Virus record (IMG/VR): IMGVR_UViG_3300037307_000895
Source of the DNA: an uncultured virus (IMG/VR IMGVR_UViG_3300037307_000895)
Lineage: Duplodnaviria; Heunggongvirae; Uroviricota; Caudoviricetes
Strand: one strand, 5' to 3'
DNA: 64,000 bases
Shown here: positions 1 to 64,000 of the stretch, in pieces
Layout: each line of letters starts with the position of its first letter
How positions within the stretch are numbered: position 1 is the first letter of the stretch
Notes under the pieces: model-generated
Database searches by the model: none
What the model saw: the letters and a program-made list of their open reading frames with translations, nothing else
Told to the model about the DNA's origin: nothing
Program-made: the position numbers and the translations under genes

Positions 1-993
1 TTACAACCATTTACCAGTGGCAAAACATATGATTTAGAATTTGTTACAGGCGACAATGACTTCTTAAAATTAACAAATGCGGGAAATCCTTTCAGTATTT
101 CAAATTTAATATTCGGTAAAATATTAAAAGATTTTATATCATCTAAAAATCCAGATACAATCAATATTGAACCTACTCCACCCGAAGATGAAGCTAGTAG
201 ATATGATAATAAAAAACACTCTAAATATTACCTTTATTTAAGAACATTAAATAGAGAATTCAAAAATTCTGATTGGAAAATCATAAAGTTAGAATATGGT
301 TCTGAATATGAAGATGTTAAGAGAATATTATTAATAAACACCAAATCTGATTTTTGGAAAAATAATATTGATGACTTTTTAAATTCTTTAAATAATAAAA
401 TAAATGAAGAATTGAGAGTAACTTCAAGAACATCTGGTTCTGGCCGAACAAAAGAGGTGGATGTCATTTTAGATGATCCATCCTCACCAAAGACATTAAG
501 TTCATATGTCTTATTAAGAAAAAAATTAAAGGAAGAAGAATTAGAAAGTGAACTAGCGGAATTAACAGGAGTATCACAAACTAAATCATCTCCGAAAAGA
601 AAGATAAATTTACATAAAATTAAAACATCTATTGTACGTCAACACGAAAGAAGAATGGATAGATTGGTAATATTGATTAATAATATGAATTTCTTAAAGG
701 ACCAACTAGAAGAAAATGGCATCTTAAAATGTGAATATTGTGGTGGTGGACCTCTCTATATCTATGATCCATTTACAAAAGAAGAACATCAAGATGATCA
801 AAATCAGTATATTAGATATTCTAATTTTAAATGGAATGGAGCAACTTGTGACCATAAAAATCCAAGGTCTAAAGGGGGTGATGTCTTTGATTATGATAAC
901 TTAGCTGTTTGTTGTAGGAAATGTAACCTTAAAAAAGGAGCTAAAAGCTATAACAACTGGATAGAAATAATCAAAAATAAAAAAGGAAGATAG
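1..993 (+). CDS. 5'-truncated protein with C-terminal HNH endonuclease domain
   Basis: Frame 1 is open from base 1 to TAG at 993 (the track's 412 start is internal); CEYCG...TCDHKNPRSKGG...NLAVCCRKCNLKKG HNH signature. Confidence 0.8.
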   Translation, partial: LQPFTSGKTYDLEFVTGDNDFLKLTNAGNPFSISNLIFGKILKDFISSKNPDTINIEPTPPEDEASRYDNKKHSKYYLYLRTLNREFKNSDWKIIKLEYGSEYEDVKRILLINTKSDFWKNNIDDFLNSLNNKINEELRVTSRTSGSGRTKEVDVILDDPSSPKTLSSYVLLRKKLKEEELESELAELTGVSQTKSSPKRKINLHKIKTSIVRQHERRMDRLVILINNMNFLKDQLEENGILKCEYCGGGPLYIYDPFTKEEHQDDQNQYIRYSNFKWNGATCDHKNPRSKGGDVFDYDNLAVCCRKCNLKKGAKSYNNWIEIIKNKKGR

Positions 994-3626: not shown

Positions 3627-3815
3627 TTAACTGATTGCTAAATCTTTAATTTCATCTTCAAAATCTTCGTAATCGATTTTGTTCAAATCTAATTCCATTA
3701 GAATATCATCAATAATATCCATACGAACTTCAATTTCGTCAGTTTCAAACAATTCGTCAAGAAGATCATTGACTTCGGGAATGTTGAATTCTTCAAGTTT
3801 TTTAATAATGTCCAT
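3627..3815 (-). CDS. Small very acidic protein
   Basis: 62 aa, D/E-rich; start overlaps the ligase stop. Confidence 0.55.
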   Translation of the reverse strand: MDIIKKLEEFNIPEVNDLLDELFETDEIEVRMDIIDDILMELDLNKIDYEDFEDEIKDLAIS

Positions 3816-4456
3816 TAAAATTTATAGTTTTTAGTAGGTTTACGTGCCTTTACTTGTGATTTAGAGTTATTATTTTCAGTTGTACCCAATTCCAACTTTG
3901 CATTTTTGCGTTTCATAACTAGTCCTTCAACCATATCAATCTTAGATAACTGATTGAAGATATTCAAGAAATCATTATCGTAACTTTTAACACGATAAAT
4001 GTTTTCAGTAAATTGATAGAGATAACTTTTATTACATTCAGTTTTACCATATAATTCATCCAACAGAGAAACTCTTTCTTCAAAAGTAGTTCCCACCATA
4101 TATTCTGAATTATAAACCAAAATATCAAAAATAATCAGTTTGTGATTAAATACTTCACCCTTTTCATCCCTTTTAGATTTATTAAGATATTCACCATTAA
4201 TAACAATCCACTCACCTGGTTGACAAACTGAATAGAGTTTCTCCATTTCTTTTCTATCGAGTTGAAAATTTGTCAAGTTCTGACTATGACGGTTCATTGG
4301 AATAAACTTCTGCCCGTTCATAAAAAGAACGCAGTTAGAACCATTCATCTTAGGTTGTGCAATCATCATACCATTATCCCATACGGGAATATTCTTAGTA
4401 GGAATGGCATTCTTTGGACGAGGCGGGTAGATATATGAATATTCTTTGTATTTCAT
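3815..4456 (-). CDS. ATP-dependent ligase-type nucleotidyltransferase (adenylation domain only)
   Basis: Motifs QPKMNG (I), INGEY (III), FDIL (IIIa), EGLVMK (IV), terminal K (V); ATG 4456 chosen because the track's TTG start lies in the promoter. Confidence 0.75.
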   Translation of the reverse strand: MKYKEYSYIYPPRPKNAIPTKNIPVWDNGMMIAQPKMNGSNCVLFMNGQKFIPMNRHSQNLTNFQLDRKEMEKLYSVCQPGEWIVINGEYLNKSKRDEKGEVFNHKLIIFDILVYNSEYMVGTTFEERVSLLDELYGKTECNKSYLYQFTENIYRVKSYDNDFLNIFNQLSKIDMVEGLVMKRKNAKLELGTTENNNSKSQVKARKPTKNYKF

Positions 4457-4460
4457 ACTA

Positions 4461-4492
4461 CAAAGATACAAAATTTATTTGAAATTGCCAAA
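4461..4492 (-). promoter_or_regulatory. Bacteroidota sigma70-type promoter (-33 TTTG / -7 TATCTTTG)
   Basis: caaagata 4461-4468 and caaa 4489-4492 on + strand, 20-nt spacer. Confidence 0.75.
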
Positions 4493-4995: not shown

Positions 4996-5358
4996 TTAAT
5001 GCCAATATAAATAAATAATTAATTCATCAGGTAGTTCTTTTATAAAAGAGATAGCAGCTCGATTTGCATAACTCATAGGTTGATAATCTCTCAAAGCATC
5101 TTTTAAATATTTTGATTTAACTCCTTTAATTACATCTCCGTATGGAGTTTTATAAGTATCACCAAAGCAAACATCATCATAATATTCAGAACTTCCGGTA
5201 TAAGAAGTGATTGGATTGTCGATTTCGATTCCATATTTTTTTGAAGTTTCGTCGATAATATCAAAAAGTTTCCCGTCTCTACCGCAACTGATTAGAGTAT
5301 TAGCAAAATCGGGAGAACTTGTTGAATAAGATACTAATAAATTTAAATCAAGCCCCAT
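4996..5358 (-). CDS. Hypothetical phage protein
   Basis: ORF 120 aa, MGLD... start and ...YWH end. Confidence 0.65.
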   Translation of the reverse strand: MGLDLNLLVSYSTSSPDFANTLISCGRDGKLFDIIDETSKKYGIEIDNPITSYTGSSEYYDDVCFGDTYKTPYGDVIKGVKSKYLKDALRDYQPMSYANRAAISFIKELPDELIIYLYWH

Positions 5359-5792
5359 TAGGATAAAAGTGATTTAATGATTTCTGAAACTACTTTATTA
5401 TCAGCCTTACCTGATAGCTTCTTAGAGGCAATACCCATTACTTTACCCATTTCACGAGTAGATGTTGCACCTGTTTCTGTTATAACTTCTGAAACAACCT
5501 GTTTGATTTCGTCAATAGAGAGTTGCTTTGGAAGAAATTCTTCAATTACAGAAATATCTTCTATTTCAACTAAATATAGGTCTTCGCGGTTATTTGCTTT
5601 ATAGATATCCGCGCTTTCTTTACGTTGTTTAACCATTCGTTGTAGAGCAGTTAACTGCATTTCTTCTGTTACTTCTTTACCACTGGAGTTTAATAAATCT
5701 AATTGAGATTTGATACTCCTTAATGCTCGAAGTCGGCTTGCGTCTTTTTGAAGCATCGCCGACCTAATTTCCTTCATAATCTTTTCTTGCAT
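5358..5792 (-). CDS. yqeY: GatB/YqeY domain protein
   Basis: KQRKESADIY...REDL...E...IEEFLPKQLS...EMGKVMG...GKAD pattern of YqeY. Confidence 0.9.
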   Translation of the reverse strand: MQEKIMKEIRSAMLQKDASRLRALRSIKSQLDLLNSSGKEVTEEMQLTALQRMVKQRKESADIYKANNREDLYLVEIEDISVIEEFLPKQLSIDEIKQVVSEVITETGATSTREMGKVMGIASKKLSGKADNKVVSEIIKSLLS

Positions 5793-19552: not shown

Positions 19553-21169
19553 TTATAAAGAATTTTGAATTCTTTTTACAGTTTCATCTTTACCCAAGAT
19601 ATACATAGTCGTAACCAAATCTGGACCTGGAACACCACCAGTTACAGACACTCTCAATGATGGCATCACTTTACCCATTTTAACCCCATTATCGGTACAA
19701 GTATCGAAAATCAATTGCTTGATTTTATCTGATTCCCAATCAATATCATCAACTTTTGTTACAAAGTCAGAGAATACCTTTTTATATTCAGCAGAAAGGC
19801 TATTCAAATCTTTTTCAGATAAAACCACAGGCTTGAAGAAGATGTCAGTTACAACATTCAAGTCAGTTTTGAATGTACTTCTTTTCTTAGCTAAATCTAC
19901 AATCATAGCCATTTTATCATCAGAATATTTATAAATATCACCCATGTTAATATTCTTCATCAATTCATCATCTGATTTATTTTGTAAATAGTTACTATTG
20001 AACCATTTTGCTTTATCAATATCAAATCTAGCTCCCGCTTTATGCACTCTATCTAATGAAAAATCTGAAATCATATCAGCCATTTTATAAAGCTCTTTAC
20101 CATCAGTTGGTGCCCATCCTAAAAGAAGTAAGAAGTTAATAAGAGCATCGGGTTCATAACCTTCGTCTTTAAAACCTTTATATTTAACAACATTACCCTT
20201 ATCATCTACACCTTCACCACCGAATGGAAATACAGGAATACCGTATTTGATACCATCTCTCTTAGAAAGTTTTCCACGGCCATCTGGACGAAGAATAGAT
20301 GGGAGGTGAGCAAAAATTGGAGGATTCCAGCCAAATGCTTCGTATAACATAACGTGAAGAGGGGCGGATGAAAGCCATTCTTCACCTCTGATTACGTGAG
20401 TAGTTCCCATATCATGGTCGTCACAAACACTAGCCATGTGATAAGTAGGAATACCATTTGATTTAACCAATACTTTATCATCAACTTGAGCACTATTGAA
20501 TGAAACATCTCCTCTAACAATATCATTGAAAGAGATTGTTTTATTTTCAGGAACTTTAAATCTTATAACATAAGGTGCACTCGAATCTAACAATTTATCA
20601 ACTTCTTCTTTTGACAACGAAAGAGAGTTTTTCATATTCATTCGTGACTTAGCATCATAAGCAAAATTTTGATTTTCACTTCTGGCTTTAGTCAAATCTT
20701 TTTCAGTATCAAAAGCATAATAAGCATGACCCGCATCTAAAAGAGTCTTGATGTGTTTACTATAGTCTCTTTCAGATTGGCGATAGGGGCCATTCGGACC
20801 ACCTTTCCATGGATCCCAATCAGGTTCAATTCCGCACCATTCCAAAGCATTTTTAATGTAGTCTTCCGCTTCGGCAACAAATCTTTTTTGGTCAGTATCT
20901 TCAATACGAATATAGAATATACCACCATGTTTTTTAGCAAATAAGTAGTTATACAAAGCAGTACGAATGCCTCCAATGTGTAAGAATCCAGTTGGTGAAG
21001 GAGCAAATCTTGTTACTACTTTACCACTTACTTGTGCATCATCCAAAGCATCTAAACTTTTTTGTACATCAGGACTTTGATTTTCATCATTGTCCGATAA
21101 TATTTCCAATGCATTATCTTTTAAATCTTTAGATTCTAGAAACTTTTGTCTGTTCTTAATATACTTCAT
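19553..21169 (-). CDS. gltX: Glutamate--tRNA ligase with about 48-aa N-terminal extension
   Basis: TRFAPSPTGFLHIGG, RIEDTD, GPYRQSER, THVIRGEEW, KLSKR, C-terminal anticodon-binding domain. Confidence 0.95.
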   Translation of the reverse strand: MKYIKNRQKFLESKDLKDNALEILSDNDENQSPDVQKSLDALDDAQVSGKVVTRFAPSPTGFLHIGGIRTALYNYLFAKKHGGIFYIRIEDTDQKRFVAEAEDYIKNALEWCGIEPDWDPWKGGPNGPYRQSERDYSKHIKTLLDAGHAYYAFDTEKDLTKARSENQNFAYDAKSRMNMKNSLSLSKEEVDKLLDSSAPYVIRFKVPENKTISFNDIVRGDVSFNSAQVDDKVLVKSNGIPTYHMASVCDDHDMGTTHVIRGEEWLSSAPLHVMLYEAFGWNPPIFAHLPSILRPDGRGKLSKRDGIKYGIPVFPFGGEGVDDKGNVVKYKGFKDEGYEPDALINFLLLLGWAPTDGKELYKMADMISDFSLDRVHKAGARFDIDKAKWFNSNYLQNKSDDELMKNINMGDIYKYSDDKMAMIVDLAKKRSTFKTDLNVVTDIFFKPVVLSEKDLNSLSAEYKKVFSDFVTKVDDIDWESDKIKQLIFDTCTDNGVKMGKVMPSLRVSVTGGVPGPDLVTTMYILGKDETVKRIQNSL

Positions 21170-26968: not shown

Positions 26969-27664
26969 ATGAACATTATAGGAATAGACCCTTCTCTCAT
27001 ATCAACCGCAGTAGTGGTTAATGGTAAAATATTTAACTATTGTAAAGAATCTTATGCTTCAAATAAAAATGGATTATCAAAGTGGTATAAGCTATGTGAA
27101 CAATATGTGACTTACAGGTTTGTTGATTATAGAGAGTTTTCATCTTATTCAGAAGGTGAATTAACTAAATTAAAAGACTATGATAAGGTAACTGATATGA
27201 TTATTCAGGATATCGAGTCTAATATTGATAAATCATTAGAAACTAAAATTGGAATTGAAGGATATAATTTTGGTGCTAGCGTTGGTGATTTAATTGACCT
27301 TGTTACCTTCTCTACTTTATTAAGAAAAAAATTATTTGATTATATTGGCAAAGATATCTTAGTAATGTCACCTCTTTCTCTTAAGCAAGAATCTTGTAAA
27401 TTAACTTATCCACCAAAAGATATAGGCAAAAAGAAGCCAAAATTAGAATGGAGGAATAACGAAGGAATTGCAGGAGGTAGTTTTACTAAAAGAGAAATGT
27501 TTTTATCTGTTGTTGAAAATCAAACTATCAATGATGAATGGTCAAATCATTTAAGGAATATTAAAGATGAAGTTTTAGAAAATAAAACCATTAAGAAACC
27601 TTATGAGGATATTAATGACGCTTATTTATTGTATAAAATATTAGGAAAAAATGAAAAAAATTAA
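26969..27664 (+). CDS. RuvC-like Holliday junction resolvase
   Basis: IIGIDPS, IGIEG, K..M, DINDAY RNase H-fold acidic residues. Confidence 0.75.
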   Translation: MNIIGIDPSLISTAVVVNGKIFNYCKESYASNKNGLSKWYKLCEQYVTYRFVDYREFSSYSEGELTKLKDYDKVTDMIIQDIESNIDKSLETKIGIEGYNFGASVGDLIDLVTFSTLLRKKLFDYIGKDILVMSPLSLKQESCKLTYPPKDIGKKKPKLEWRNNEGIAGGSFTKREMFLSVVENQTINDEWSNHLRNIKDEVLENKTIKKPYEDINDAYLLYKILGKNEKN

Positions 27665-28301
27665 ATCTTTTAATGAGTCTGTTGCGACAGATAATATTTA
27701 TATTAAATCAGTAGAGGTTATATCAGATGTTAACCCTTTAAAAGCGGGTGTTAAAGTTGACTTCAATAAAAATATAACATTTATTGTAGGGGACAATGGT
27801 GTTGGAAAATCAACTTTATTAGAATGTATTCGTGATTATTTTGGATATGTTGATGATACATATTTGAGAAGGATGGATATGAAACAACATATTAAGATAG
27901 ATAAGGTTAGTGATAATTTTAACTTCACATTCGTAGATTTTCACGGTGACGATAAGAAGTTTGCGTCGGCATTTGGGAGTAATATCGGTTTACAAATACA
28001 ACAAATGAAAGCTTCTTCCGGACAAGTATCTATCTCATTATTAAACAATGCTCTGGGCAACATAGAAAAGGTTAAAAACGGGGTTATTATACTTGATGAG
28101 CCATGTAGAGGACAATCATTAAGGAATAAATGGAATGTTGTTAGACTTATAAATGGATTAACAGAGAGATTTGGTTGCCAAGTTATATTAACTACACACT
28201 CTGATACTATTTTGTCCGCATTTAAAGATAAAGCACAATACTTTGATATAGTAGCGAATAAAGATACTACATATACAGAATATATTTTGTCACAGCTATG
28301 A
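27651..28301 (+). CDS. Stand-alone ABC-type ATPase with N-terminal MKKIKSFNES tag
   Basis: Walker A GDNGVGKST, SSGQ signature, IILDEP, TTHS. Confidence 0.85.
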   Translation: MKKIKSFNESVATDNIYIKSVEVISDVNPLKAGVKVDFNKNITFIVGDNGVGKSTLLECIRDYFGYVDDTYLRRMDMKQHIKIDKVSDNFNFTFVDFHGDDKKFASAFGSNIGLQIQQMKASSGQVSISLLNNALGNIEKVKNGVIILDEPCRGQSLRNKWNVVRLINGLTERFGCQVILTTHSDTILSAFKDKAQYFDIVANKDTTYTEYILSQL

Positions 28302-28912
28302 GCATAGGAATAATAATAGTAAATTGGCGGGCGCCTCAGTATCTTGAACACCAAATATTATCTATTCGTAAATATTTAAGTCCTGATGATATTCATGTTT
28401 TTGAAACAGATTATTATAAACATTGTGAAAGCATTTGTTCTGATAATTATGTTTATTATAATCATTTTTCAACCAGTAATGATTATAGTAAATCACATGC
28501 TAATGCTTTGAATTACGCTTATAAAAAACTTTCTAAAAATTATGATATAATAGGAATAATAGATCATGATTGTTTTCCAACTTCCCATTATAATGTCATA
28601 GAAATGTTAGGAACTTGTGACATTAGAGCGGAAGAACAAAAGAGAGGGGATATATTATATCCAAATACTACTTGTTTATTTATGAAGTCAAATTTAGATA
28701 TTGATTTTATGCCATCACCTGGATTAGATACAGGTGGTAGGTTATCAAACATATATAAAACAGAATGTAAAATGAAAAGATCTGAAGGTCCTTATGGAAT
28801 TGAAATATTTGATGATGTTTTTATGCACATTGGAAAAGGTAGTAATTGGATAAATACTTTAGAAAATCAAGAAAGAGTTGAAAAAGCATTTGAATATATT
28901 AAATTTTTATAA
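28298..28912 (+). CDS. Glycosyltransferase (GT-A fold)
   Basis: HANALN, IIDHD (DxD), DTGG, late His. Confidence 0.65.
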   Translation: MSIGIIIVNWRAPQYLEHQILSIRKYLSPDDIHVFETDYYKHCESICSDNYVYYNHFSTSNDYSKSHANALNYAYKKLSKNYDIIGIIDHDCFPTSHYNVIEMLGTCDIRAEEQKRGDILYPNTTCLFMKSNLDIDFMPSPGLDTGGRLSNIYKTECKMKRSEGPYGIEIFDDVFMHIGKGSNWINTLENQERVEKAFEYIKFL

Positions 28913-34737: not shown

Positions 34738-35122
34738 ACTACCAAGAAACATTCCTCCAGGTAGTTTGCATAACTTTTCCGAAGAACTTTTAGAATTAAA
34801 CGAAAGATACATCTTCCTAAAAGGATGGTGTGATGTTATTGATAAAACAGTCAAGGATAATAACTATTGGATAATCTTGGGGAAATCAGTAGATGATATG
34901 ATCAAAGAATACTTTGATAATTCTGAATTTGAATATCCTGATGGTGAATATGAATATGATATTTGTGTCAGAATAACACCAACCTATTTTGATGATATGG
35001 GTAGAATCACCGAACAATCATATTTAGAACCTGAATATGAGAAATTTACCTTGATACAAACCATCGAACAAAGAGAAAGAGATAAATCAATTGATACAAT
35101 TTTAGACCTAAATTTTATATAA
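34721..35122 (+). CDS. Hypothetical protein, C-terminal RDKSIDTIL tag
   Basis: ORF 133 aa. Confidence 0.55.
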   Translation: MKKRYELPRNIPPGSLHNFSEELLELNERYIFLKGWCDVIDKTVKDNNYWIILGKSVDDMIKEYFDNSEFEYPDGEYEYDICVRITPTYFDDMGRITEQSYLEPEYEKFTLIQTIEQRERDKSIDTILDLNFI

Positions 35123-36566
35123 TTTCTACCGGATACCCCCATAAATATTCTATATAAGGAATTACTTTTTCTTTATTTAGAATGCCTTTATTATCTAATG
35201 GAGTATATTTAAGTGTTAATTTTCTATCACCGAATAAATCAACATTAACTATTTGTATATCCGGCACATAATAACTTCTATTATATTGCTTAGATAATTG
35301 TTCTCTTATAATCTTGTATCCATTGTCATTATGTATATGTTTAACTAAATAATGATCTTTCTTTTCATCATCATTTAATGTGAATAATTTCATATTTCTA
35401 ATTACATTAGGAGATAAATATTGATGTATAAAAGTATCATCTTTAAAGTTCTCAACAATATATAAAATAGTCTCTTTCCAATTTTTATTACCAGCAATAT
35501 AAGGAAACCATTTTTTATCTTCTTCTGTTGGATCAATCGACATTCTTTTTACGTCTTTAAGAATATTAAATCCTAATGTATAAGGATTAATTCCACTATA
35601 ATACTTACTATCAAAGTCAGGTTGATATATTACATTTGAATGATGATGAAAAAATTCTAACATAAATGAATCACTCAAATAATCATCATCAAACATCTTA
35701 TTAATGATTTCATAGTGTGCAAAGGTAGCTATCCCTTCATTAAGGACCTTAGTTTGCGCTTGAGGATAAAAATATTGTGATATCTTTCTAACTATTCTTA
35801 TTATTTCTCGCTGCCATTCTTTTAATTTTGGAGAATTTTTTTCAATAAAATAAAGTATATTTTCCTCTGGTTGTTCTGGAAAACTAATTTGTGTGGTTAT
35901 TCTATTGTCATTTTGTTGTGGAAGTGTTTTCCATATTTCTGTCAATAAAATTCTATCATCATCAATTTTAGAAGATAATCTTTCCTTTTCTTCAATAGTT
36001 GATATTTTACTTGGTTTTTTATATTTATCAACACCATATTCCATTAGTGAGTGACAAGAATCAAGCATTAATTCCACCTCTTCATATCCATATTTTAGTT
36101 CACAATTTCTAATATAATTTTTAGCAAATATCATGTAATCGATGATAGAATCAGCATGTGTCCATTGTTTGAATAAATAATTATTTTTGAAATAATGATT
36201 ATGTCCTTGCACATGAGCATAAACGAGAGTCATCAAACAAGTATTATTTGTTTCCAAATTATAAGAGATACATGGATTGGAATTTATAACCATTTCATAA
36301 GAAAGACCCATTCTTCCTTTTTTGTACATATTTTCATTTGAAATAAAATCTCTCCCAAATTTCCAATGGTCATAAGAAAGTGGTAGGCCAATTAACGAGT
36401 AAGCATCTAATAATTGTTCGTATGTTACAATTTCAAATTGATTAGGATATACATCTAATCCTAAATGACTTATTGAAATATCATCTATAATTTCACTAAA
36501 AGTAATTATAGTATCTTCGTTCCATTCGGAATTATCTAATATTTTTTTTACTTCATCTTTACTCAT
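35115..36566 (-). CDS. spoVR: SpoVR/YcgB family protein
   Basis: GLP.SY.HW.FG, YEMVINSNPCISY, AHV.GHNH.FKNN, YFYPQ.QTKVLNEG.A, NPY.LG, LWGYPVE. Confidence 0.92.
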   Translation of the reverse strand: MSKDEVKKILDNSEWNEDTIITFSEIIDDISISHLGLDVYPNQFEIVTYEQLLDAYSLIGLPLSYDHWKFGRDFISNENMYKKGRMGLSYEMVINSNPCISYNLETNNTCLMTLVYAHVQGHNHYFKNNYLFKQWTHADSIIDYMIFAKNYIRNCELKYGYEEVELMLDSCHSLMEYGVDKYKKPSKISTIEEKERLSSKIDDDRILLTEIWKTLPQQNDNRITTQISFPEQPEENILYFIEKNSPKLKEWQREIIRIVRKISQYFYPQAQTKVLNEGIATFAHYEIINKMFDDDYLSDSFMLEFFHHHSNVIYQPDFDSKYYSGINPYTLGFNILKDVKRMSIDPTEEDKKWFPYIAGNKNWKETILYIVENFKDDTFIHQYLSPNVIRNMKLFTLNDDEKKDHYLVKHIHNDNGYKIIREQLSKQYNRSYYVPDIQIVNVDLFGDRKLTLKYTPLDNKGILNKEKVIPYIEYLWGYPVEII

Positions 36567-37822
36567 TTAGTTTCTTTATTTTTGGAAAAAAATCTAGTGA
36601 ATAATGGCCATATACCATTTAATTTTTTAATTATCCCATAATCAAAATTTTTATTACTTATCCTTTCATAGGAATTCATTAGACCGCTGGTATCAAGCAT
36701 GTCAGATACTTCAACATACCAAGCCCATTGTATTTGAGATAATATTTCTTTTAACAGTTTTTTTGATAGTGTTGCATCTGATTTATCCCATACATCACCA
36801 TCTGATATTTGTGTTAAATAAATATTATGCTCATTAGTAGAATATCTTTTATTTATTATTTCTTTAGCTAATTTTAAGGCATTACTAACAATTGTTCCCC
36901 CTGTTTCTTTAGAATTGAAAAATTCTTCCTCGTCAACTTCCTTCGCCTCAGTGTGATGTCTGATATAAACAATTTCTATCTTTTCATATTGTTTATTTAA
37001 AAACAAATATAATAACATAAAAAATCTTTTCGCAATATCTTTATGAAACTCAGTCATACTACCTGAAACATCCATTATGCATATCATAACTGCTGATGTT
37101 ATTGGGTAAGGTTTTTGTTCGTAGTTATTATATTTTAAATCTATATCATCCATAAATGGTATAGATTTCTTCATTTTAATGAATTTATCTAATTCTTTTT
37201 TGAGTTCTTCTAATTTAGATTCATCAGTTTCTTTAGATATTTTTTCCTCTATTTCTTTTATTTTTTTATCAAAAAATAAAATTGTGGCCATTTTTCTAAT
37301 TAAAGAGTTTTCATAAGACTTTGTTACACTTAATCTATTTGGTGTTCCTTGGTTTGAATAGCCAGATTTTTTTAATTTGTTCTTAGTTATTGTATTAAAA
37401 TGCTTTTTAACTAAATCGGGTAACTCTAAATCTTCGAAAAAATAATCCAAAAACTCATCTTTATTTATTGTTATTGTAAATTCATCTTCTGATATTTCTC
37501 CACCATTTGAAGCTCCTTTACCAGATCCCTTACCCTTACCTTTTTCTTTTTTGATCTTATCTCCTTCAGAGAATTCTTTATTTCCTGGTAATATAATATC
37601 ATTTTCACCACTTTTTCTGTCATATTGAAAATGCGGATCATCTATCCTTTTTATGGGAACCTTTATTTTATCATTAGAAACTATATCTTTTATATCAGTA
37701 TTTTTAATAATTCCAGGTAAAGCTTCTTTTATTTGATTTTTTACTCTATTTAAAAATCTTTGTCTGTTTTCAGAAGATTTTCCTTTACTATTATTTCTTC
37801 TATCAAGAATATTTATTCCCAT
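36563..37822 (-). CDS. yeaH: YeaH/YhbH (DUF444) vWA-like protein
   Basis: DRR...KS.ENRQRF, PGNKEF..GD, FEDLELP, MDVSGSM, IRHHTEAKEVDE..FF...ETGGT, SDGD. Confidence 0.92.
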   Translation of the reverse strand: MGINILDRRNNSKGKSSENRQRFLNRVKNQIKEALPGIIKNTDIKDIVSNDKIKVPIKRIDDPHFQYDRKSGENDIILPGNKEFSEGDKIKKEKGKGKGSGKGASNGGEISEDEFTITINKDEFLDYFFEDLELPDLVKKHFNTITKNKLKKSGYSNQGTPNRLSVTKSYENSLIRKMATILFFDKKIKEIEEKISKETDESKLEELKKELDKFIKMKKSIPFMDDIDLKYNNYEQKPYPITSAVMICIMDVSGSMTEFHKDIAKRFFMLLYLFLNKQYEKIEIVYIRHHTEAKEVDEEEFFNSKETGGTIVSNALKLAKEIINKRYSTNEHNIYLTQISDGDVWDKSDATLSKKLLKEILSQIQWAWYVEVSDMLDTSGLMNSYERISNKNFDYGIIKKLNGIWPLFTRFFSKNKETK

Positions 37823-37825
37823 TTA

Positions 37826-39757
37826 TTAATTTGAATTTTTTCTAATCCTTAAGAACCATTCAGTTAAAAGCTTTATTTGCTTAATAGTATATCCTCTTTT
37901 TTTCATCCTTTCTACAAAATCATTGTGTTTTTTCTCTTCTTCTTTGGAAGCTTTTGTATTAAAAGAAATAACAGGTATTAAATCTTCTGTTTTTGAGAAA
38001 ATTCTTTTCTCAATTACATTTCTTATTTTTTCATATGAATCCCATGTTGGTGATTCCCCATTTTTGGCTTTGTGTCTTAGATAGAATTGAACAATATCAT
38101 TCCTGAAATCTTTTGGATTTGCTATACCCGCAGTTTTTTCCATTTTTTCTAATTCATCATTTAATAATTTTCTATCAAATTGTTGCCCAGTATCTGGATC
38201 TCTGAAATCATTATCTTGACACCAATGGTCCGCATATGTGACATATCTTTCAAATAAATTCTGGCCATATTCATAGTATGAGTCTACATAAGCTTTTTGA
38301 ATTTCATCTGCTATGAATTCCGCATATTTAGGAACTATATTAGATTTTAAAATATTAAGGTAATATTCTTCAGTTTCTTTATGCAACTGCAATTTCATTA
38401 TTTCTTGCTCTAAAATATAGAATAAATGAACTGGGTTAGCAGCTACTTCTTCATTGTCATAATTAAATACTTTTGATAGTACTTTAAATGCAAATCTTGT
38501 TGATATACCAGCCATGCCTTCACTTACACCAGCATCATCTTTATATTCTTGTAGTGATTTTGACTTTAAATCCACTTCTTTCAAATTTTCACCATTATAA
38601 ACTCTCATCTTAGAAAATAAAGATGAATTTTCGGTTGGTTTAAGTCTTGTCATTACACAAAATTGAGCTAATAACTCTAATGTTAATGGGGAACAAACAC
38701 ATTTTGATAAAGATGATTCTCTTAGTAATTTTTTATATATCATAACTTCTTCATCAACTCTAAGACAATATGGAACTCTTACTATATTTACTCTATCTAA
38801 GAAAGCCTCATTTTTTTTATCATTAGAGAAAGTTTCCCATTCTGATTCATTCGAGTGTGCTAATATTATACCTTGGAAAGGTATTGGAGGCAAATTTTCT
38901 GTACCATTATAATTACCTTCTTGTGTTGCAGTTAATAGAGGGTGTAATATTTTAATAGGGGCTTTGAACATTTCAACAAATTCCATTATACCCTGATTTG
39001 ATTTACATAAAGATCCTGAATAGTTATAAGCATCTGCATCATTTTGTGGGAATTCTGCCAATTTTCTAATATCAATTTTACCAACTAATGATGATATATC
39101 TTGATTATTTTCATCACCAGGTTCTGTTTTGGATATTCCAATCTGTGATGATATTGATAATTTAATTCTTCTAACCTTAAATTTAGAAATATCTCCGTTA
39201 AATTCATCTAATCTTTTCGTTGCCCATGGTGATGGACAAGATGGAACATATCTTTTTGGAATTCCATATTCTTCTTCTAATTTATCTTTATAAGATGAAA
39301 AAAGACCTAAAGGACTTTCCCATACTGGAGAAATATCATTATTTGCTACTAAAACATAAATATATGTTTTTTCCATTAATTGCTTAAGTCTTTCAGATAT
39401 AGAGCTTTTACCACCACCCACAGGACCTAATAAGTATAATATTTGTTTCTTTTCTTCTAATCCTTGTGCGGCATGTTTAAAAAAGGATACAATTTGTTCT
39501 ATCGTATCTTCCATCCCATAAAATTCTGAAAATGCTGGGTACCTTTTAATTAGTCTATTAGAATAAATTCTTCTGAGTCTATCATCTAATTTTGTGTCAA
39601 TTAATTCTGGTTCCCCTATAGATTCTAACATTCTTTCGTGAGGACTCATATAATGTTTTTTATCTTCAGAACATAGTTTTAAATATTCTTCGATACTTAT
39701 ATCCTCATTTTTTAAATTAAAGTCCTTTTTTATTTCTTTAAATAAACTCATAATCAA
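37826..39757 (-). CDS. prkA: PrkA/YeaG family AAA+ serine protein kinase
   Basis: AAQGLEEKKQILYLLGPVGGGKSS, EPGDENNQDIS.LVGK, EFVEMFKAPIK.LHPLLTATQEGNY, AHSNESEW, NEAFLDR. Confidence 0.95.
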   Translation of the reverse strand: MIMSLFKEIKKDFNLKNEDISIEEYLKLCSEDKKHYMSPHERMLESIGEPELIDTKLDDRLRRIYSNRLIKRYPAFSEFYGMEDTIEQIVSFFKHAAQGLEEKKQILYLLGPVGGGKSSISERLKQLMEKTYIYVLVANNDISPVWESPLGLFSSYKDKLEEEYGIPKRYVPSCPSPWATKRLDEFNGDISKFKVRRIKLSISSQIGISKTEPGDENNQDISSLVGKIDIRKLAEFPQNDADAYNYSGSLCKSNQGIMEFVEMFKAPIKILHPLLTATQEGNYNGTENLPPIPFQGIILAHSNESEWETFSNDKKNEAFLDRVNIVRVPYCLRVDEEVMIYKKLLRESSLSKCVCSPLTLELLAQFCVMTRLKPTENSSLFSKMRVYNGENLKEVDLKSKSLQEYKDDAGVSEGMAGISTRFAFKVLSKVFNYDNEEVAANPVHLFYILEQEIMKLQLHKETEEYYLNILKSNIVPKYAEFIADEIQKAYVDSYYEYGQNLFERYVTYADHWCQDNDFRDPDTGQQFDRKLLNDELEKMEKTAGIANPKDFRNDIVQFYLRHKAKNGESPTWDSYEKIRNVIEKRIFSKTEDLIPVISFNTKASKEEEKKHNDFVERMKKRGYTIKQIKLLTEWFLRIRKNSN

Positions 39758-53091: not shown

Positions 53092-53163
53092 GGTCCCATA
53101 GTTAAATGGATATAACGACTGCCTTCTAAGCAGTGGTTCCAAGTTCGATTCTTGGTGGGACTA
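53092..53163 (+). tRNA. tRNA-Arg(TCT)
   Basis: GGTCCCA/TGGGACT acceptor, ACTGC-CTTCTAA-GCAGT anticodon arm, CCAAG-TTCGATT-CTTGG T arm. Confidence 0.93.
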
Positions 53164-53171
53164 CGATTAAC

Positions 53172-55846: not shown

Positions 55847-55918
55847 GGTTGTGTGGCCGAGTGAATTAGGCTTAGGACTGCAAATCCTACTACGGTGGTT
55901 TGAATCCACCCCCAACCT
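55847..55918 (+). tRNA. tRNA-Cys(GCA)
   Basis: TAGGA-CTGCAAA-TCCTA anticodon arm, GGTGG-TTTGAAT-CCACC T arm, U73 discriminator; one acceptor-stem mismatch. Confidence 0.85.
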
Positions 55919-55931
55919 CAAATAAATTGTT

Positions 55932-61283: not shown

Positions 61284-61718
61284 ATGTATTGCCCTCATTG
61301 TAAAAAATTGAATAAATGTTTCTGCTCTAATTGTAATAAAAATTCTGAAACAGAAGGAGTGATTATAATAGATAGGGAACATAATATGTACCGTTGTTAT
61401 TTTTGTGGAGAATTATTTCATGAACAAGACTCTGCGGATTATGAATGGGATATGATGATTGAAAGATTTGCAAGAGAAATATCTCCAGATGATTGTTTAG
61501 ATTGGTGGGAGTATGGTTTTAATAAATTTTTAAAAAATTTTAAAGAAATATCATATATAGAAGAAGAAAAAAAGAGAATTAAAAAATTAAAAGAAAAATA
61601 TGGAGAATTTGCATTAGAGCAAGCATTTAAAATTCACTTTAAATATCACCCAGACAATATAAATTGGGAAATATTTTATAAACTTAAACGAGAGAACACA
61701 ATAAATAAATTATTATGA
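61284..61718 (+). CDS. Zn-binding hypothetical protein, C-terminal RENTINKLL tag
   Basis: CPHC...C.C..C...CYFC. Confidence 0.6.
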   Translation: MYCPHCKKLNKCFCSNCNKNSETEGVIIIDREHNMYRCYFCGELFHEQDSADYEWDMMIERFAREISPDDCLDWWEYGFNKFLKNFKEISYIEEEKKRIKKLKEKYGEFALEQAFKIHFKYHPDNINWEIFYKLKRENTINKLL

Positions 61719-62146
61719 AAATTTCAAATAGAAAAGCATATTACGAATATAATATCATTAGAGAATTCATCTGTGGGATCAAATTACTTGGTTCTGAGGT
61801 AAAATCATTAAGAAATGGTGAAGCCAATATGCAAGACTCATATTGTTATGTTTTTAATAATGAGGTTTTTGTCAAGGGTCTTCATATTTCAAAAAACAAA
61901 ATGTCTTCTTATAACAATCACGAAGAAAAGAGAGATAGAAAATTACTTTTAACGAAAAAAGAAATCAGAAATATAATAGGTGAGACAAAGGCTAATAATG
62001 GTATGACTATTATTCCTTTGGAAATATTCGAATCCAACGGTAAATTTAAAATCAAAATAAGCTTAGCTAAAGGTAAAAAACTTCACGATAAACGAGAGTC
62101 AGTCAAGAAGAAAGAAATGGATAGAGAAATTAAAAATTACACATAA
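61715..62146 (+). CDS. smpB: SsrA-binding protein SmpB
   Basis: NRKAYYEY, G..L.GSEVKSLR, NH...R.RKLLL.KKEI, AKGKKLHDKRE. Confidence 0.95.
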   Translation: MKISNRKAYYEYNIIREFICGIKLLGSEVKSLRNGEANMQDSYCYVFNNEVFVKGLHISKNKMSSYNNHEEKRDRKLLLTKKEIRNIIGETKANNGMTIIPLEIFESNGKFKIKISLAKGKKLHDKRESVKKKEMDREIKNYT

Positions 62147-62147
62147 T

Positions 62148-62510
62148 ATGCACAGAGAAGACAATTCAAAATATCTACTTTTTATTGAGCCGAAAAAAGA
62201 AGATAAATTAAAAGAACCCATTAATGACGAACTAACACAAATGATGGAAATGGCTCTTTCTAAAGCAGAAAGAGGAGTATCTATGTACTCTTCTAAATCC
62301 GACAATGGAAATTTTAGAAAAGGTATAGGGTTTAAAGGATTCCACACAACAGATTGTGGTGAAAGGTCAGCATCAACAGATTTTTTATTAGAAAATGGAA
62401 TGATAACTAATTCATTAGCTCCTTTCTATTTAAGATGGTATAGATATTCTATACCCGAATCCGAAATGATTAAAGTAAAAAAATTAAAAGAATACTATGA
62501 AAATAATTAA
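62148..62510 (+). CDS. Hypothetical phage protein
   Basis: 120 aa, GFH...CG..S...D.LL.NG..TNSL. Confidence 0.6.
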   Translation: MHREDNSKYLLFIEPKKEDKLKEPINDELTQMMEMALSKAERGVSMYSSKSDNGNFRKGIGFKGFHTTDCGERSASTDFLLENGMITNSLAPFYLRWYRYSIPESEMIKVKKLKEYYENN

Positions 62511-62634
62511 ATGGTTTGAATGGATTTTTGATTTTTACATCGCACACTTTCTATATAACGAAAGAAAACTATACAGATATGATCGTTATATGAAAGAAAA
62601 ATGGGGTGATAAATATACTAAAATTAAAGACTAA
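62497..62634 (+). CDS. Small ORF not in track (45 aa, MKIIKWFEWIFDFY...)
   Basis: Open frame overlapping the upstream stop. Confidence 0.45.
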   Translation: MKIIKWFEWIFDFYIAHFLYNERKLYRYDRYMKEKWGDKYTKIKD

Positions 62635-62761
62635 ACATAGACTTCAATTTAGTCCAAAAATTTTTTAATAAAGATACAGAAGCCTTTATTATTTGTTTAT
62701 CATTAATCCAAATATCTGCAACTAAAATAACCGCAAATATAATACCTAGTAATTTAATCAT
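62624..62761 (-). CDS. Small membrane protein not in track (45 aa, MIKLLGIIFAVILVADIW...)
   Basis: Hydrophobic N-terminus; TAATATATA at 62781-62789 (-) upstream. Confidence 0.4.
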   Translation of the reverse strand: MIKLLGIIFAVILVADIWINDKQIIKASVSLLKNFWTKLKSMFSL

Positions 62762-62872
62762 AATTGTAATTTATTTTCGATATATATTAGATATAAAAAA
62801 AGAATTTAGTCTAAATATGGAAAAATTTTTGGTTTTTTAAACTTTTTTGTATCTTTGTGTTATAAATAACAA

Positions 62873-63098
62873 CTCGACACTTGATTTATTAGAAAATAAA
62901 TTAAGATAATAAAGGTAGAGTGTCAGAGCTTTATGATGGTAAGTAGTGACGAAATAGGCTTCTACTTCTCCAAGTCGAAAATTCACGAACCATCAAAATG
63001 TAAATTTAATAATTATATTAAATGAAACGGAGAAGGGGTTTAAGTAATATTAGTGGCATCGTTACTTATTATACCTATTAAGATGGATGTCACATTTT
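62873..63098 (+). ncRNA. Candidate independently transcribed structured ncRNA
   Basis: TATCTTTG at 62850-62857 upstream, strong hairpin downstream, no sizeable ORF, multiple helices and pseudoknots. Confidence 0.55.
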
Positions 63099-63106
63099 AG
63101 AAAAAA

Positions 63107-63138
63107 TTCCCCCTAATTGAAAAATTAGGGGGAAATTT
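63107..63138 (+). terminator. Strong hairpin, probable terminator
   Basis: ttccccctaatt-gaaa-aattagggggaa; short T-run on + strand, A-run upstream. Confidence 0.65.
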
Positions 63139-63177
63139 ACTAAAAGAGAGAATAAAAAGTTAATATATAAAAAAAGA

Positions 63178-63209
63178 TTTGGTGGATTCAAAAAGTCACC
63201 GTATCTTTG
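63178..63209 (+). promoter_or_regulatory. Bacteroidota sigma70-type promoter of the tRNA operon
   Basis: tttg 63178-63181, tatctttg 63202-63209, 20-nt spacer. Confidence 0.8.
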
Positions 63210-63242
63210 TGAAACAAATAAACAAATAAAAATATAATAGTC

Positions 63243-63341
63243 ATGTCATACGTTAGCAAACATAAACATTTTAGTAAGTTCCATTTTTGGTTTATCACCA
63301 AGAGTTCAGGAGCTATTGCTGATTTGTTTTATGACGAATAA
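63243..63341 (+). CDS. His/Phe-rich attenuator leader peptide (MSYVSKHKHFSKFHFWFITKSSGAIADLFYDE)
   Basis: 32-aa ORF with 3 His and 4 Phe in codons 7-17, between promoter and terminator. Confidence 0.75.
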   Translation: MSYVSKHKHFSKFHFWFITKSSGAIADLFYDE

Positions 63342-63366
63342 CGTGATTTAACAAAAGTAATAGGTG

Positions 63367-63398
63367 AAACCCTGAACTCAAAAAGTTCAGGGTTTTTT
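63367..63398 (+). terminator. Attenuator terminator (3:4 hairpin)
   Basis: aaaccctgaact-caaaa-agttcagggttt plus T-tract; 5' arm can instead pair with gagttcagg 63302-63310. Confidence 0.85.
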
Positions 63399-63418
63399 AT
63401 TGCTAAATTTTGATGATT

Positions 63419-63592
63419 ATGAAAACAATAAAACTAATCGCGAAAGCGAAGTTGAATATAAAGTCTCTCAAGGAAAAAAATAATAAATCAGAACTTCTGA
63501 TTGAAGAAAGTTGGTTAAAGTATCTTGAGAACAAAAGAAGAGAAGAGATAAAAGATAGGTCACTTATCATAGATAAAATACCTGTCATGTAA
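63419..63592 (+). CDS. Small basic protein lacking His and Phe
   Basis: 57 aa from ATG 63419; first gene after the attenuator. Confidence 0.5.
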   Translation: MKTIKLIAKAKLNIKSLKEKNNKSELLIEESWLKYLENKRREEIKDRSLIIDKIPVM

Positions 63593-63595
63593 TAT

Positions 63596-63686
63596 GGTGT
63601 CGTTGGTCCGAGTGGTCGAAGGAATCTGGCTGTGAACCAGAATGAGTGAACAACAAACAACACGGGTTCGAACCCCGTACGACACC
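63596..63686 (+). tRNA. tRNA-His(GTG), atypical, with about 20-nt variable region
   Basis: 8-bp GGTGTCGT/ACGACACC (G-1:C73), TCTGG-CTGTGAA-CCAGA, ACGGG-TTCGAAC-CCCGT. Confidence 0.8.
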
Positions 63687-63692
63687 CAAAAT

Positions 63693-63764
63693 GGAGACGG
63701 TAGCTCAGAGGGTAGAGCAACGGCAGAAAACCGTGTGTCGTTGGTTCGATTCCAGCCCTCTCCA
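63693..63764 (+). tRNA. tRNA-Phe(GAA), atypical (A33, bulged acceptor stem)
   Basis: GGAGAcGG/CCTCTCC, GCTC/GAGC D stem, ACGG-CAGAAAA-CCGT, GTTGG-TTCGATT-CCAGC. Confidence 0.7.
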
Positions 63765-63774
63765 CGAAACATAA

Positions 63775-63847
63775 GGTGCGGTATCTCAGTTGGTAGAGCG
63801 TGGGCCTGAAGAGCCCAGCGTCGGCGGTTCGAATCCGTCCCGCACCA
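63775..63847 (+). tRNA. tRNA-Phe(GAA) with G37
   Basis: GGTGCGG/CCGCACC, TGGGC-CTGAAGA-GCCCA, GGCGG-TTCGAAT-CCGTC, A73. Confidence 0.9.
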
Positions 63848-63857
63848 CTAAAAATAT

Positions 63858-63933
63858 GGTAAACAAGCTAACTTAGTAGAAGCGTTGGTCTGAAAAACCA
63901 AAGGATCCAGAGCGTAACTGGAGTTTACCACCA
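63858..63933 (+). tRNA. tRNA-Phe(GAA), atypical T-loop, encoded CCA
   Basis: GGTAAAC/GTTTACC-A-CCA, TTGGT-CTGAAAA-ACCAA, TCCAG-AGCGTAA-CTGGA. Confidence 0.8.
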
Positions 63934-63938
63934 AATAT

Positions 63939-64000
63939 GGAGTTTGTAGCTTAGTTGGTTAAAGCGTCAGTTTGTGGCACTGAAGAGCGTGGGTTCGAAT
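63939..64000 (+). tRNA. tRNA-His(GTG), truncated by window end
   Basis: GCTT/AAGC D stem, TCAGT-TTGTGGC-ACTGA, GTGGG-TTCGAAT. Confidence 0.85.

Follow-up and report, generated by a model that had tools for sequence, protein, structure and literature searches.

The 64,000-nt stretch of DNA analysed here (the window; IMG/VR record IMGVR_UViG_3300037307_000895, from an uncultured virus) ends in a tandem array of five tRNA genes, the feature under study, which occupies positions 63596–64000 and is cut by the window end. It consists of a tRNA-His, a Phe-like tRNA, two tRNA-Phe and a second tRNA-His, and is preceded by a short leader open reading frame (ORF) and an intrinsic terminator. We put the probability at roughly 60% that the array is a leader-peptide-attenuated tRNA operon, an on-demand and self-limiting back-up supply with selected isodecoders. 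This reading is carried by the genes themselves, their conservation and compensatory changes, the leader, the terminator, a pairing that competes with it, and a match in relatives between the composition of a leader and the tRNAs downstream of it.

Relatives were collected by two kinds of search. With the SmpB protein and sigma factor of the window as queries, 19 IMG/VR loci were found at 47–88% identity, many of them carrying arrays of Phe, His, Trp and several Lys tRNAs. The closest of these (sigma factor 88% identical) have an array in the same order, with about 70% identity over positions 63661–63999. A pattern search for the first tRNA-His, which has an unusual extra arm, gave eight IMG/VR loci, 20 metagenome contigs and one 170-kb contig, with some contigs found twice. 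Two complete uncultured phage genomes, LR756502.1 (642 kb) and LR745206.1 (634 kb), were also compared.

Leader, terminator and putative antiterminator upstream of the array

The stretch between the SmpB gene (61715–62146, + strand) and the array is poor in ORFs, and the regulatory element within it (63178–63400, + strand throughout) was absent from the preliminary description of this DNA. It begins with a promoter-like element of two short boxes 20 nt apart (63178–63209), recognized by reading the sequence and kept before the leaders of relatives. The boxes resemble the Bacteroidota type of promoter; a sigma-70 scan gave only a neighboring match, at 63209–63238. The piece 63169–63218 recurs on other contigs of the same samples, once before another short ORF.

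The leader ORF (63243–63341) has 32 codons and was identified both as an ORF and by its homologs. Codons 6–17 specify three Lys, three His, four Phe, one Trp and one Ser, and 11 of these 12 are cognate to the His, Phe, Trp and Lys tRNAs of this type of array in relatives. Counting His and Phe alone, they make up 8 of the 31 residues of the window leader, against 7% expected (p = 9e-4). In comparison with the closest relatives, the first 17 codons show three synonymous changes and no non-synonymous ones, and the remaining peptide has diverged. Homologous leaders stand before His/Phe/Trp/Lys arrays in 10 further diverged loci, including both of the 634–642-kb genomes.

The leader is followed by an intrinsic terminator (63366–63400) with a 13-pair stem, a 5-nt loop and a T run, identified by its fold and by covariation. 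On 11 aligned leaders, 99.2% of 127 cells are paired and 7 of 12 pairs have two-sided changes, which none of 500 shuffles matched. Within the leader ORF, codons 20–23 contain a near copy of the terminator 3' arm (63301–63311). As a putative antiterminator segment this can pair with the terminator 5' arm in a duplex of −16.4 kcal/mol, as stable as the terminator itself, and none of 500 dinucleotide shuffles of the leader reaches that value. When the relatives are read sequence by sequence, the in-ORF copy and the terminator arm change together. The minimum-energy fold of 63243–63400 (−50.1 kcal/mol, z = −7.0, 0 of 200 shuffles as good) corresponds to the classical 1:2 plus 3:4 state, with the regulatory codons paired to the antiterminator segment in a 1:2 hairpin (63271–63322) and the terminator formed. 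Rfam leader families gave at best 23.6–26.3 bits on the window, compared with gathering scores of 50–55. Between terminator and first tRNA there is a small ORF of 59–60 codons (63413–63592) that matches nothing in Pfam or PHROG; the closest relatives have in its stead a 207-aa gene resembling a HisRS core. In three relatives (L058, L013, and L029) the terminator T run ends only about 10–20 nt before the first tRNA, which leaves no room for a separate promoter, so that termination would have to be conditional there.

A scan of 25 loci gave 20 candidates for such leader-plus-terminator units, and in nine of them at most 5 of 500 shuffles form as good an antiterminator duplex. Residues cognate to the leader's own downstream tRNAs are enriched in 14 of the 20 at binomial p < 0.01, and in four more at 0.01–0.06. 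The leaders include seven types by composition (Lys/His/Phe; Glu/Tyr; Ile/Gly/Ala; Asn/Leu/Thr/Val; Gln/Asp/Pro; Ser/Arg; Asn/Ser/Ile/His/Trp/Met), and of the 5040 ways to assign these to the seven tRNA sets, the real one alone scores best. In both complete genomes a terminator and a short ORF stand before nearly every tRNA block, and taken together the attenuators and duplicated isodecoders of these genomes cover nearly all amino acids.

Leaders of other composition, with terminators, before matching tRNA blocks were noted in L064–L072 (LR756502.1 and LR745206.1), L033, L034, and L040 (7578–7693), among them an Asn/Ser/Ile/His/Trp/Arg/Met variant. The candidate in L015 did not match its own tRNA set (p = 0.32) and was not counted.

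In the proposed mechanism, transcription from the promoter near 63178–63209 would first cross the 32-codon leader with its many Lys, His, Phe and Trp codons. If these are read fast, the terminator at 63366–63400 would form and little tRNA would be made. Under a shortage of charged tRNA for Lys, His, Phe or Trp, the ribosome would stall, and 63301–63311 could then pair with the terminator 5' arm. With the antiterminator formed, RNA polymerase would enter the array and transcribe its five genes and, by analogy with the relatives, Trp and several Lys tRNAs beyond the window. Once charged tRNAs are plentiful again, the leader would again be read quickly and termination would resume. The unlike isodecoders would constitute a conserved, redundant replacement set, and their diversity most likely makes the supply robust to whatever removes or disables the host tRNAs. 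Switching, expression and charging, like this reason for the diversity, are predictions from sequence comparison.

The tRNA genes and their isodecoders

The tandem array of three Phe-GAA and two His-GTG tRNAs read in the preliminary description was recovered with ARAGORN (four genes) and Rfam (the fifth, cut one). All five lie on the + strand and score above the 29-bit gathering score of the Rfam tRNA model RF00005; with E-values from 2.6e-11 to 2.4e-4 in 405 bases, they are far beyond chance. The tRNA-His(GTG) no. 1 is 91 nt long with a class-II-like body (63596–63687 including its G-1, 63597–63687 in ARAGORN; 48.7 bits). After it come the tRNA-like Phe(GAA) no. 1 (63693–63765; ARAGORN, 35.1 bits), tRNA-Phe(GAA) no. 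2, with 65% G+C (63775–63848; ARAGORN, 60.4 bits), and tRNA-Phe(GAA) no. 3, with an encoded CCA (63858–63933; ARAGORN, 42.5 bits). The truncated tRNA-His(GTG) no. 2 occupies 63939–64000 including G-1 (Rfam 63940–64000, model positions 1–58; 47.8 bits). The G+C content of the tRNA genes of the array is 43–65%, against 28.3% for the window. Four of the five have U33 in a 7-nt anticodon loop, the exception being Phe no. 1 with A33. The bacterial tRNA-Phe identity set comprises the GAA anticodon and A73, and both are present in all three Phe genes of the window. The preliminary description had also held that there are more copies than codon supplementation would need, and this is borne out by the long ORFs of the window, where His accounts for just 1.7% and Phe for 5.1% of residues (Trp 1.2%, Lys 9.6%), so that codon demand does not explain the copy numbers. 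A short A/T-rich spacer ending in A-T-G precedes the first G of each of the five tRNAs (63590–63945), possibly a common processing context.

The first tRNA-His is the most distinctive of the set. Its Ser/Leu-like D-arm, noted at the outset, consists of a short D stem of three pairs and a large 11-nt loop, as in class II, and the variable region, given as about 20 nt and unpaired, is 20 nt (above the 10-nt minimum of class II) and indeed unpaired in the centroid fold, with two pairs in the minimum-energy fold, where class II would call for a stem-loop. The anticodon loop reads CUGUGAA. The stems are 7/5: the acceptor has 7 bp, extended by G-1:C73, and the T stem 5 bp. The family comprises 18 distinct sequences. 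Pairing is kept in 98.7% of 378 cells, and two-sided changes occur at 11 of 21 pairs (57 cells), which none of 500 shuffles reaches. The three D-stem pairs are invariant in all 18 and the D loop is nearly so. Encoded G-1 opposite C73, together with a GUG anticodon, is the bacterial tRNA-His identity set. The G at 63596 stands opposite C73 in the window copy, and G-1:C73 is kept in 17 of the 18. Because these HisRS marks and the GTG anticodon are kept, the extra-arm tRNA most likely still carries histidine. A Tyr- or Ser-derived tRNA charged accordingly was considered and rejected; C73 and G-1 argue against it under the usual identity rules.

The variable region of this family exists in two sequence types. 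That of the window is A/C-rich and nearly identical in five diverged relatives with different stems, which argues for a sequence-specific role; in a sister subgroup there is a possible 3-bp stem, without covariation. A search of the whole window for a complementary partner gave one match, the trivial self-site (0.45 expected from shuffles). The second tRNA-His has G-1 at 63939, a GTG anticodon and the U32/G37 type of loop (UUGUGGC, as first described), its position 73 lying beyond the window. The nearest relatives are 0.77–0.82 identical to it, with a complete positional ortholog in L040 and L041. A 207-aa HisRS-core gene without the anticodon-binding domain (Pfam tRNA-synt_His, E = 1e-19; 1406–2029 in L040) occurs at six related loci (L040, L041, L019, L020, L044, and L055) within or next to the His array, either between the attenuator and the His tRNAs or directly after them. 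A tblastn search of the 64-kb window did not reveal such a mini-HisRS (best E = 4.7). In L040 (about 2040–2125 and 2208–2292), and likewise in L041, the first His and second Phe tRNAs have a small extra hairpin in the D loop and no extra variable arm. ARAGORN fails to call them or gives them a wrong label, in one case Tyr(ata).

The anticodon loop of Phe no. 2 is CUGAAGA with G37, and that of Phe no. 3 is CUGAAAA (A37 type), both in agreement with the first reading. Phe no. 2 belongs to a loose group of five in which 13 of 22 pairs are kept through two-sided changes. A U10·C25 mismatch, absent from the preliminary description, is found here in the window alone, the relatives reading G at 63784. 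Its positional ortholog in L040 and L041 has a small hairpin inserted in the D loop. For Phe no. 3, with nine family members, 16 of 20 pairs are kept through two-sided changes; a Phe tRNA of L013 is counted in both groups, so the two counts share one sequence. The elbow of a standard tRNA is formed by contacts between a T54-Psi55-C56 T-loop and G18-G19. Phe no. 3 departs from this rule with A54 and G55, in the non-TTC T-loop AGCGTAA that had been pointed out along with A8, and with A18 in place of the first of the pair of Gs. The A54 T-loop is present in all nine family members, G55 and A18 in the window copy alone.

The A33 gene is a different matter. The early account of Phe no. 1, with its loop CAGAAAA, A33 and a 4-bp anticodon stem, is correct, an A·G mismatch at 27:43 leaving four pairs. 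The "bulged acceptor" is in fact a C6·C67 mismatch, common to the gene and its orthologs, and not a bulge. Among the three sequences, 5 of 21 pairs are kept through two-sided changes, and both the acceptor and the T stems are compensated. The anticodon loop behaves otherwise, with 7 nt in the window and 8 nt, of other letters, in L040 and L041, where the loops differ from each other even though the flanking tRNAs are identical. In relatives about 96% identical (runs X15 and X16, labelled RNA-Seq but flagged as probably DNA and used as contig comparisons with no bearing on expression), there are indels at 63721 and 63724, within the same anticodon arm. A second Phe-like lineage shows the same alternation between 7 and 8 nt (L045 compared with L051 and L062). 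The single-sequence fold of Phe no. 1 is not a cloverleaf, its score is the lowest of the five, and A33 occurs in one of 23 Phe tRNAs of the clade. Since loop length and sequence change between close relatives while the body is conserved, comparison identifies it as a conserved tRNA-shaped RNA with an unstable anticodon loop rather than a conserved Phe decoder, and in the window, too, ordinary Phe decoding by this gene is improbable. The description of three tRNA-Phe is an overstatement, the orthologs of the A33 copy in the two closest relatives lacking GAA in a 7-nt loop.

Clade-wide, 312 distinct tRNAs from the fetched loci were surveyed. Phe has seven types of anticodon loop in 23 tRNAs and His nine in 41, compared with one in 27 for Lys-UUU and three in 23 for Trp; loop diversity is thus specific to Phe and His. 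The variable positions are 32, 37, and 38, which hardly change at all in the Lys-UUU and Trp tRNAs of the same arrays. Both A37 and G37 types are held by four of the six arrays with at least two Phe, and two different loop types by nine of the 12 arrays with two His. Long tRNAs (at least 80 nt) of isotypes other than Leu, Ser and Tyr are common: Lys (13/36), Ile (8/17), Asn (7/23), Trp (5/23) and His (19/41, a count inflated because this family was itself the search pattern). The pattern across the clade is one of two anticodon-loop classes per isotype plus extra-arm versions, and on this comparative evidence selection has maintained the unlike isodecoders as old genes; they are neither recent duplicates nor decayed remnants.

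Extra-arm versions (at least 80 nt) of Lys, Asn, Ile, Trp, Arg, Gln, Glu, Thr and Val tRNAs were seen among L013–L073. Several have a proper variable-arm stem with a four-base loop cap, and one variable-arm sequence is common to a Lys and an Asn tRNA of different phages.

The phage and its other genes

Judged by its genes, the window is from a huge Mahaphage-like phage. Its UvsX/RecA-like protein is 80% identical to that of LR756502.1 and 78% identical to that of LR745206.1, and the nearest matches of its GluRS (19553–21169, − strand) are in 634–735-kb uncultured phage genomes. Genomes above 634 kb were assigned to the Mahaphage clade, with Bacteroidetes as predicted hosts, and up to 67 tRNAs were reported in complete huge phages, which were proposed to charge variant tRNAs of their own (PMC7162821). 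The host group of this phage is probably Bacteroidota. Other genes of the window encode an NAD-dependent ligase, a complete PrkA/DUF444/SpoVR trio (35115–39757, −), an S1-domain protein, SmpB, a YqeY-like protein (5358–5792, −), GreA, a sigma factor and an RNA/DNA-ligase-like protein of 218 aa (3815–4471, −).

A blastn search of 63400–64000 against 50,697 phage records matched 108 of them by generic tRNA similarity only, with less than 80% of the query covered in every case. No exact copy of a 26-mer from Phe no. 3 was found in IMG/VR, and comparison of the array DNA with the two 634–642-kb relatives gave only short tRNA-like pieces. A 19-kb contig of run X1 extends about 4.7 kb beyond the window end. 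The 170-kb contig mentioned above (L063, PLXT01000115.1) is filed as part of a Methanobacterium metagenome-assembled genome; its phage-type extra-arm tRNA-His lies inside a phage-like tRNA array, and it is probably a huge-phage contig mis-binned into an archaeal genome.

Several further features of the window were noted. A compact ABC-type ATPase of 216 aa (27651–28301, +) resembles the PADLOC models PtuA, AriA and GajA, ATPase partners of Septu, PARIS and Gabija (E about 1e-13). The ORF next to it (28298–28912, +) is without a match, and an HNH protein at 1–993 (+) has a weak likeness to PtuB; together these may form a phage-borne nuclease system. Lone tRNAs for Arg(tct) and Cys(gca), at 53092–53164 and 55847–55919, lie among small ORFs with no leader-plus-terminator in front, and the same pair occurs in the relative L042. 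In the 730-nt ORF-poor gap at 62510–63240 there is a strong 12-pair hairpin with T runs (63107–63134), which could be a bidirectional terminator. Neither ARAGORN nor Rfam found a tmRNA beside the SmpB gene in the window; the gap might hide a divergent tmRNA-like RNA.

Alternative readings and comparison with known systems

Several observations weigh against an attenuated operon. Two of the 20 leaders are not enriched in cognate residues (p = 0.12 and 0.32), and because W01 and W02 are related to each other, their leaders do not count as independent samples. In the MAFFT alignment of the 11 leaders, the antiterminator pairing does not rise above column shuffles (295 of 500). Its register is nevertheless the best, with 82.4% paired, compared with at most 71.8% after sliding. 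The 1:2 hairpin is not conserved there (58% paired). In five of the 20 candidates the antiterminator duplex is no better than shuffles (49–95 of 500). The window terminator is separated from the first tRNA by 200 nt with a small ORF, so that a second promoter is possible there. Some of the window copies may also work poorly, given the defects found in them alone (U10·C25 in Phe no. 2, G55 and A18 in Phe no. 3, A33 in Phe no. 1). The 200-nt stretch and the weak covariation of the antiterminator would both suit an arrangement in which leader ORF and hairpin are a short gene with its own terminator, the tRNAs being transcribed from elsewhere. This is quite improbable in view of the three relatives without promoter room, the leader compositions that track the downstream tRNAs in seven types, the in-ORF copy that changes along with the terminator arm, and conservation limited to the codon-rich first half of the peptide. 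Another possibility is decay, in which the atypical copies would be pseudogenes, or passengers whose only use is as processing spacers of a polycistronic transcript. The window-specific defects of Phe no. 2 and no. 3 are in keeping with this, and for Phe no. 1 alone so are the rarity of A33, the unstable loop length, the low score and the non-cloverleaf fold. For the set as a whole, decay without compensatory changes, which the preliminary description had named as the test of its reading, is already contradicted by the stem covariation of the extra-arm His, Phe no. 3 and Phe no. 2; compensation extends to the acceptor and T stems of Phe no. 1, G-1:C73 is kept, and the odd features (A54 T-loop, encoded CCA, class-II D arm, variable-region sequence) are conserved in relatives, all of which makes decay very improbable. 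A further idea is that Phe no. 1 and its orthologs are not Phe tRNAs but decode four bases, with frameshifting, or act as a regulatory tRNA-like RNA. In L041, and for the second Phe-like lineage in L051 and L062, ARAGORN suggests a four-base anticodon; for L040 it gives an ambiguous two-letter reading, and the 8-nt loop there was read by hand. The window copy has a 7-nt loop, and the proposed four-base anticodons differ between near-identical phages, so this seems the least credible of the alternatives.

Other explanations concern the diversity of the isodecoders. They may escape host anticodon nucleases or tRNA-modifying toxins, with defective-looking copies as decoys, as the preliminary description had it. 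This is a tentative but serious possibility, and a compatible one, with the attenuator as trigger and the variants as resistant replacement. It gains from the variation at loop positions 32, 37, and 38 in Phe and His, hardly seen in Lys-UUU and Trp, from the two loop classes side by side in diverged phages, from the hot spot of change that the anticodon arm of the A33 gene forms among near-identical relatives (L040/L041, and the X15/X16 indels), from the extra arms of His (by the inflated count), Lys, Asn and Ile tRNAs, from the RNA-ligase-like gene in the window, and from published precedent (PMC10264068, PMC11555353, PMC11464382). Against it, Lys-UUU, the PrrC target (PMC10264068), is without loop variation (27 of 27 identical), and the loop comparison covers phage tRNAs of the clade. 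The same device before blocks for almost all amino acids in the 634–642-kb relatives means that general self-supply fits at least as well as a nuclease defense of Phe and His. Alternatively, the isodecoders could be suited to the synthetases and modification enzymes of different hosts, or to enzymes of the phage itself such as the mini-HisRS of the relatives, so that translation keeps going across hosts or when host modification fails. The coexistence of A37 and G37 Phe types, the A54 T-loop throughout the CCA-Phe family, the HisRS core at six loci and the suggestion that huge phages charge their own variants (PMC7162821) are all consistent with this; the failure to find a mini-HisRS in the window is not, and the enzymes acting on positions 37, 54, and 55 enter it as general background, which leaves the explanation rather doubtful. 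Going further, Mahaphage-like phages might have a private, self-regulating decoding system, with every tRNA block leader-gated, parallel forms of each isotype, charging by phage mini-synthetases such as the 207-aa HisRS core, and invisibility to host or phage tRNA-cutting enzymes. We consider this unlikely; if true, such a phage could lose or destroy the host tRNA pool and still translate.

Whether phage tRNA genes serve codon supply or counter-defense has long been argued. For the attenuated operon preferred here, a leader spelled in the codons of the downstream tRNAs would show that the phage calls on them at times of slow decoding of those codons. Phage tRNAs are known to replace host tRNAs or evade host tRNA-targeting defenses, as with anticodon-loop variants in mycobacteriophages and phage tRNAs acting against retron effectors and PARIS (PMC10264068, PMC11555353, PMC11464382, PMC12409363). 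The array resembles them in that its anticodon loops are non-standard, isotypes are present in several copies and the genome also has an RNA-ligase-like gene; it differs in that the diversity is in Phe and His, not in Lys-UUU, the target of PrrC (PMC10264068).

Class-II-like bodies with anticodons outside Leu, Ser and Tyr are shared with the nev-tRNAs of nematodes, non-canonical tRNAs with an added arm (PMC3333845), with bacterial allo-tRNAs, and with the (8/4) tRNA-His and tRNA-Ser of phages, the last also found in phage tRNA clusters. The (8/4) phage tRNA-His has an 8-bp acceptor and a 4-bp T stem, lacks G-1 and has A73 or U73 (PMC5389517), whereas the tRNA-His of the window has 7/5 stems, G-1 and C73. 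From all of these it is set apart by a variable region that is unpaired yet conserved in sequence. The word "phage" is absent from a review consulted for added-arm non-canonical tRNAs (PMC7609411). With its HisRS marks, the extra-arm tRNA-His, together with the parallel Phe and His loop classes, offers natural tests of what HisRS, PheRS, RNase P, EF-Tu and tRNA nucleases tolerate, and such tRNAs may serve as orthogonal tRNA scaffolds.

As regulation, the arrangement can be compared with T-box riboswitches, which likewise use transcription antitermination to control translation-related genes in response to the charging state of tRNA; those bind uncharged tRNA directly and need no translation, whereas the sensor here would be a translated ORF. 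The closest likeness is to the leader-peptide attenuators of enterobacteria (the trp, his, pheA, thr and ilv leaders, and pheST), with a short ORF in which regulatory codons follow one another, an intrinsic terminator and a putative antiterminator that would compete for the terminator 5' arm. The window leader also has a 1:2 hairpin and a multivalent character, in that several amino acids would be sensed by one leader. A full-text literature search, with most subscription journals outside its coverage, found no published account of leader-peptide attenuation of tRNA genes. The differences from the enterobacterial systems are that the genes gated here would be tRNA genes, plus a mini-HisRS in some relatives, instead of biosynthetic enzymes, and that the element belongs to a phage, in a lineage with promoter-like elements of Bacteroidota type. 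To these comparisons the window contributes a clade of huge phages and a link between an attenuator and structurally diversified isodecoders.

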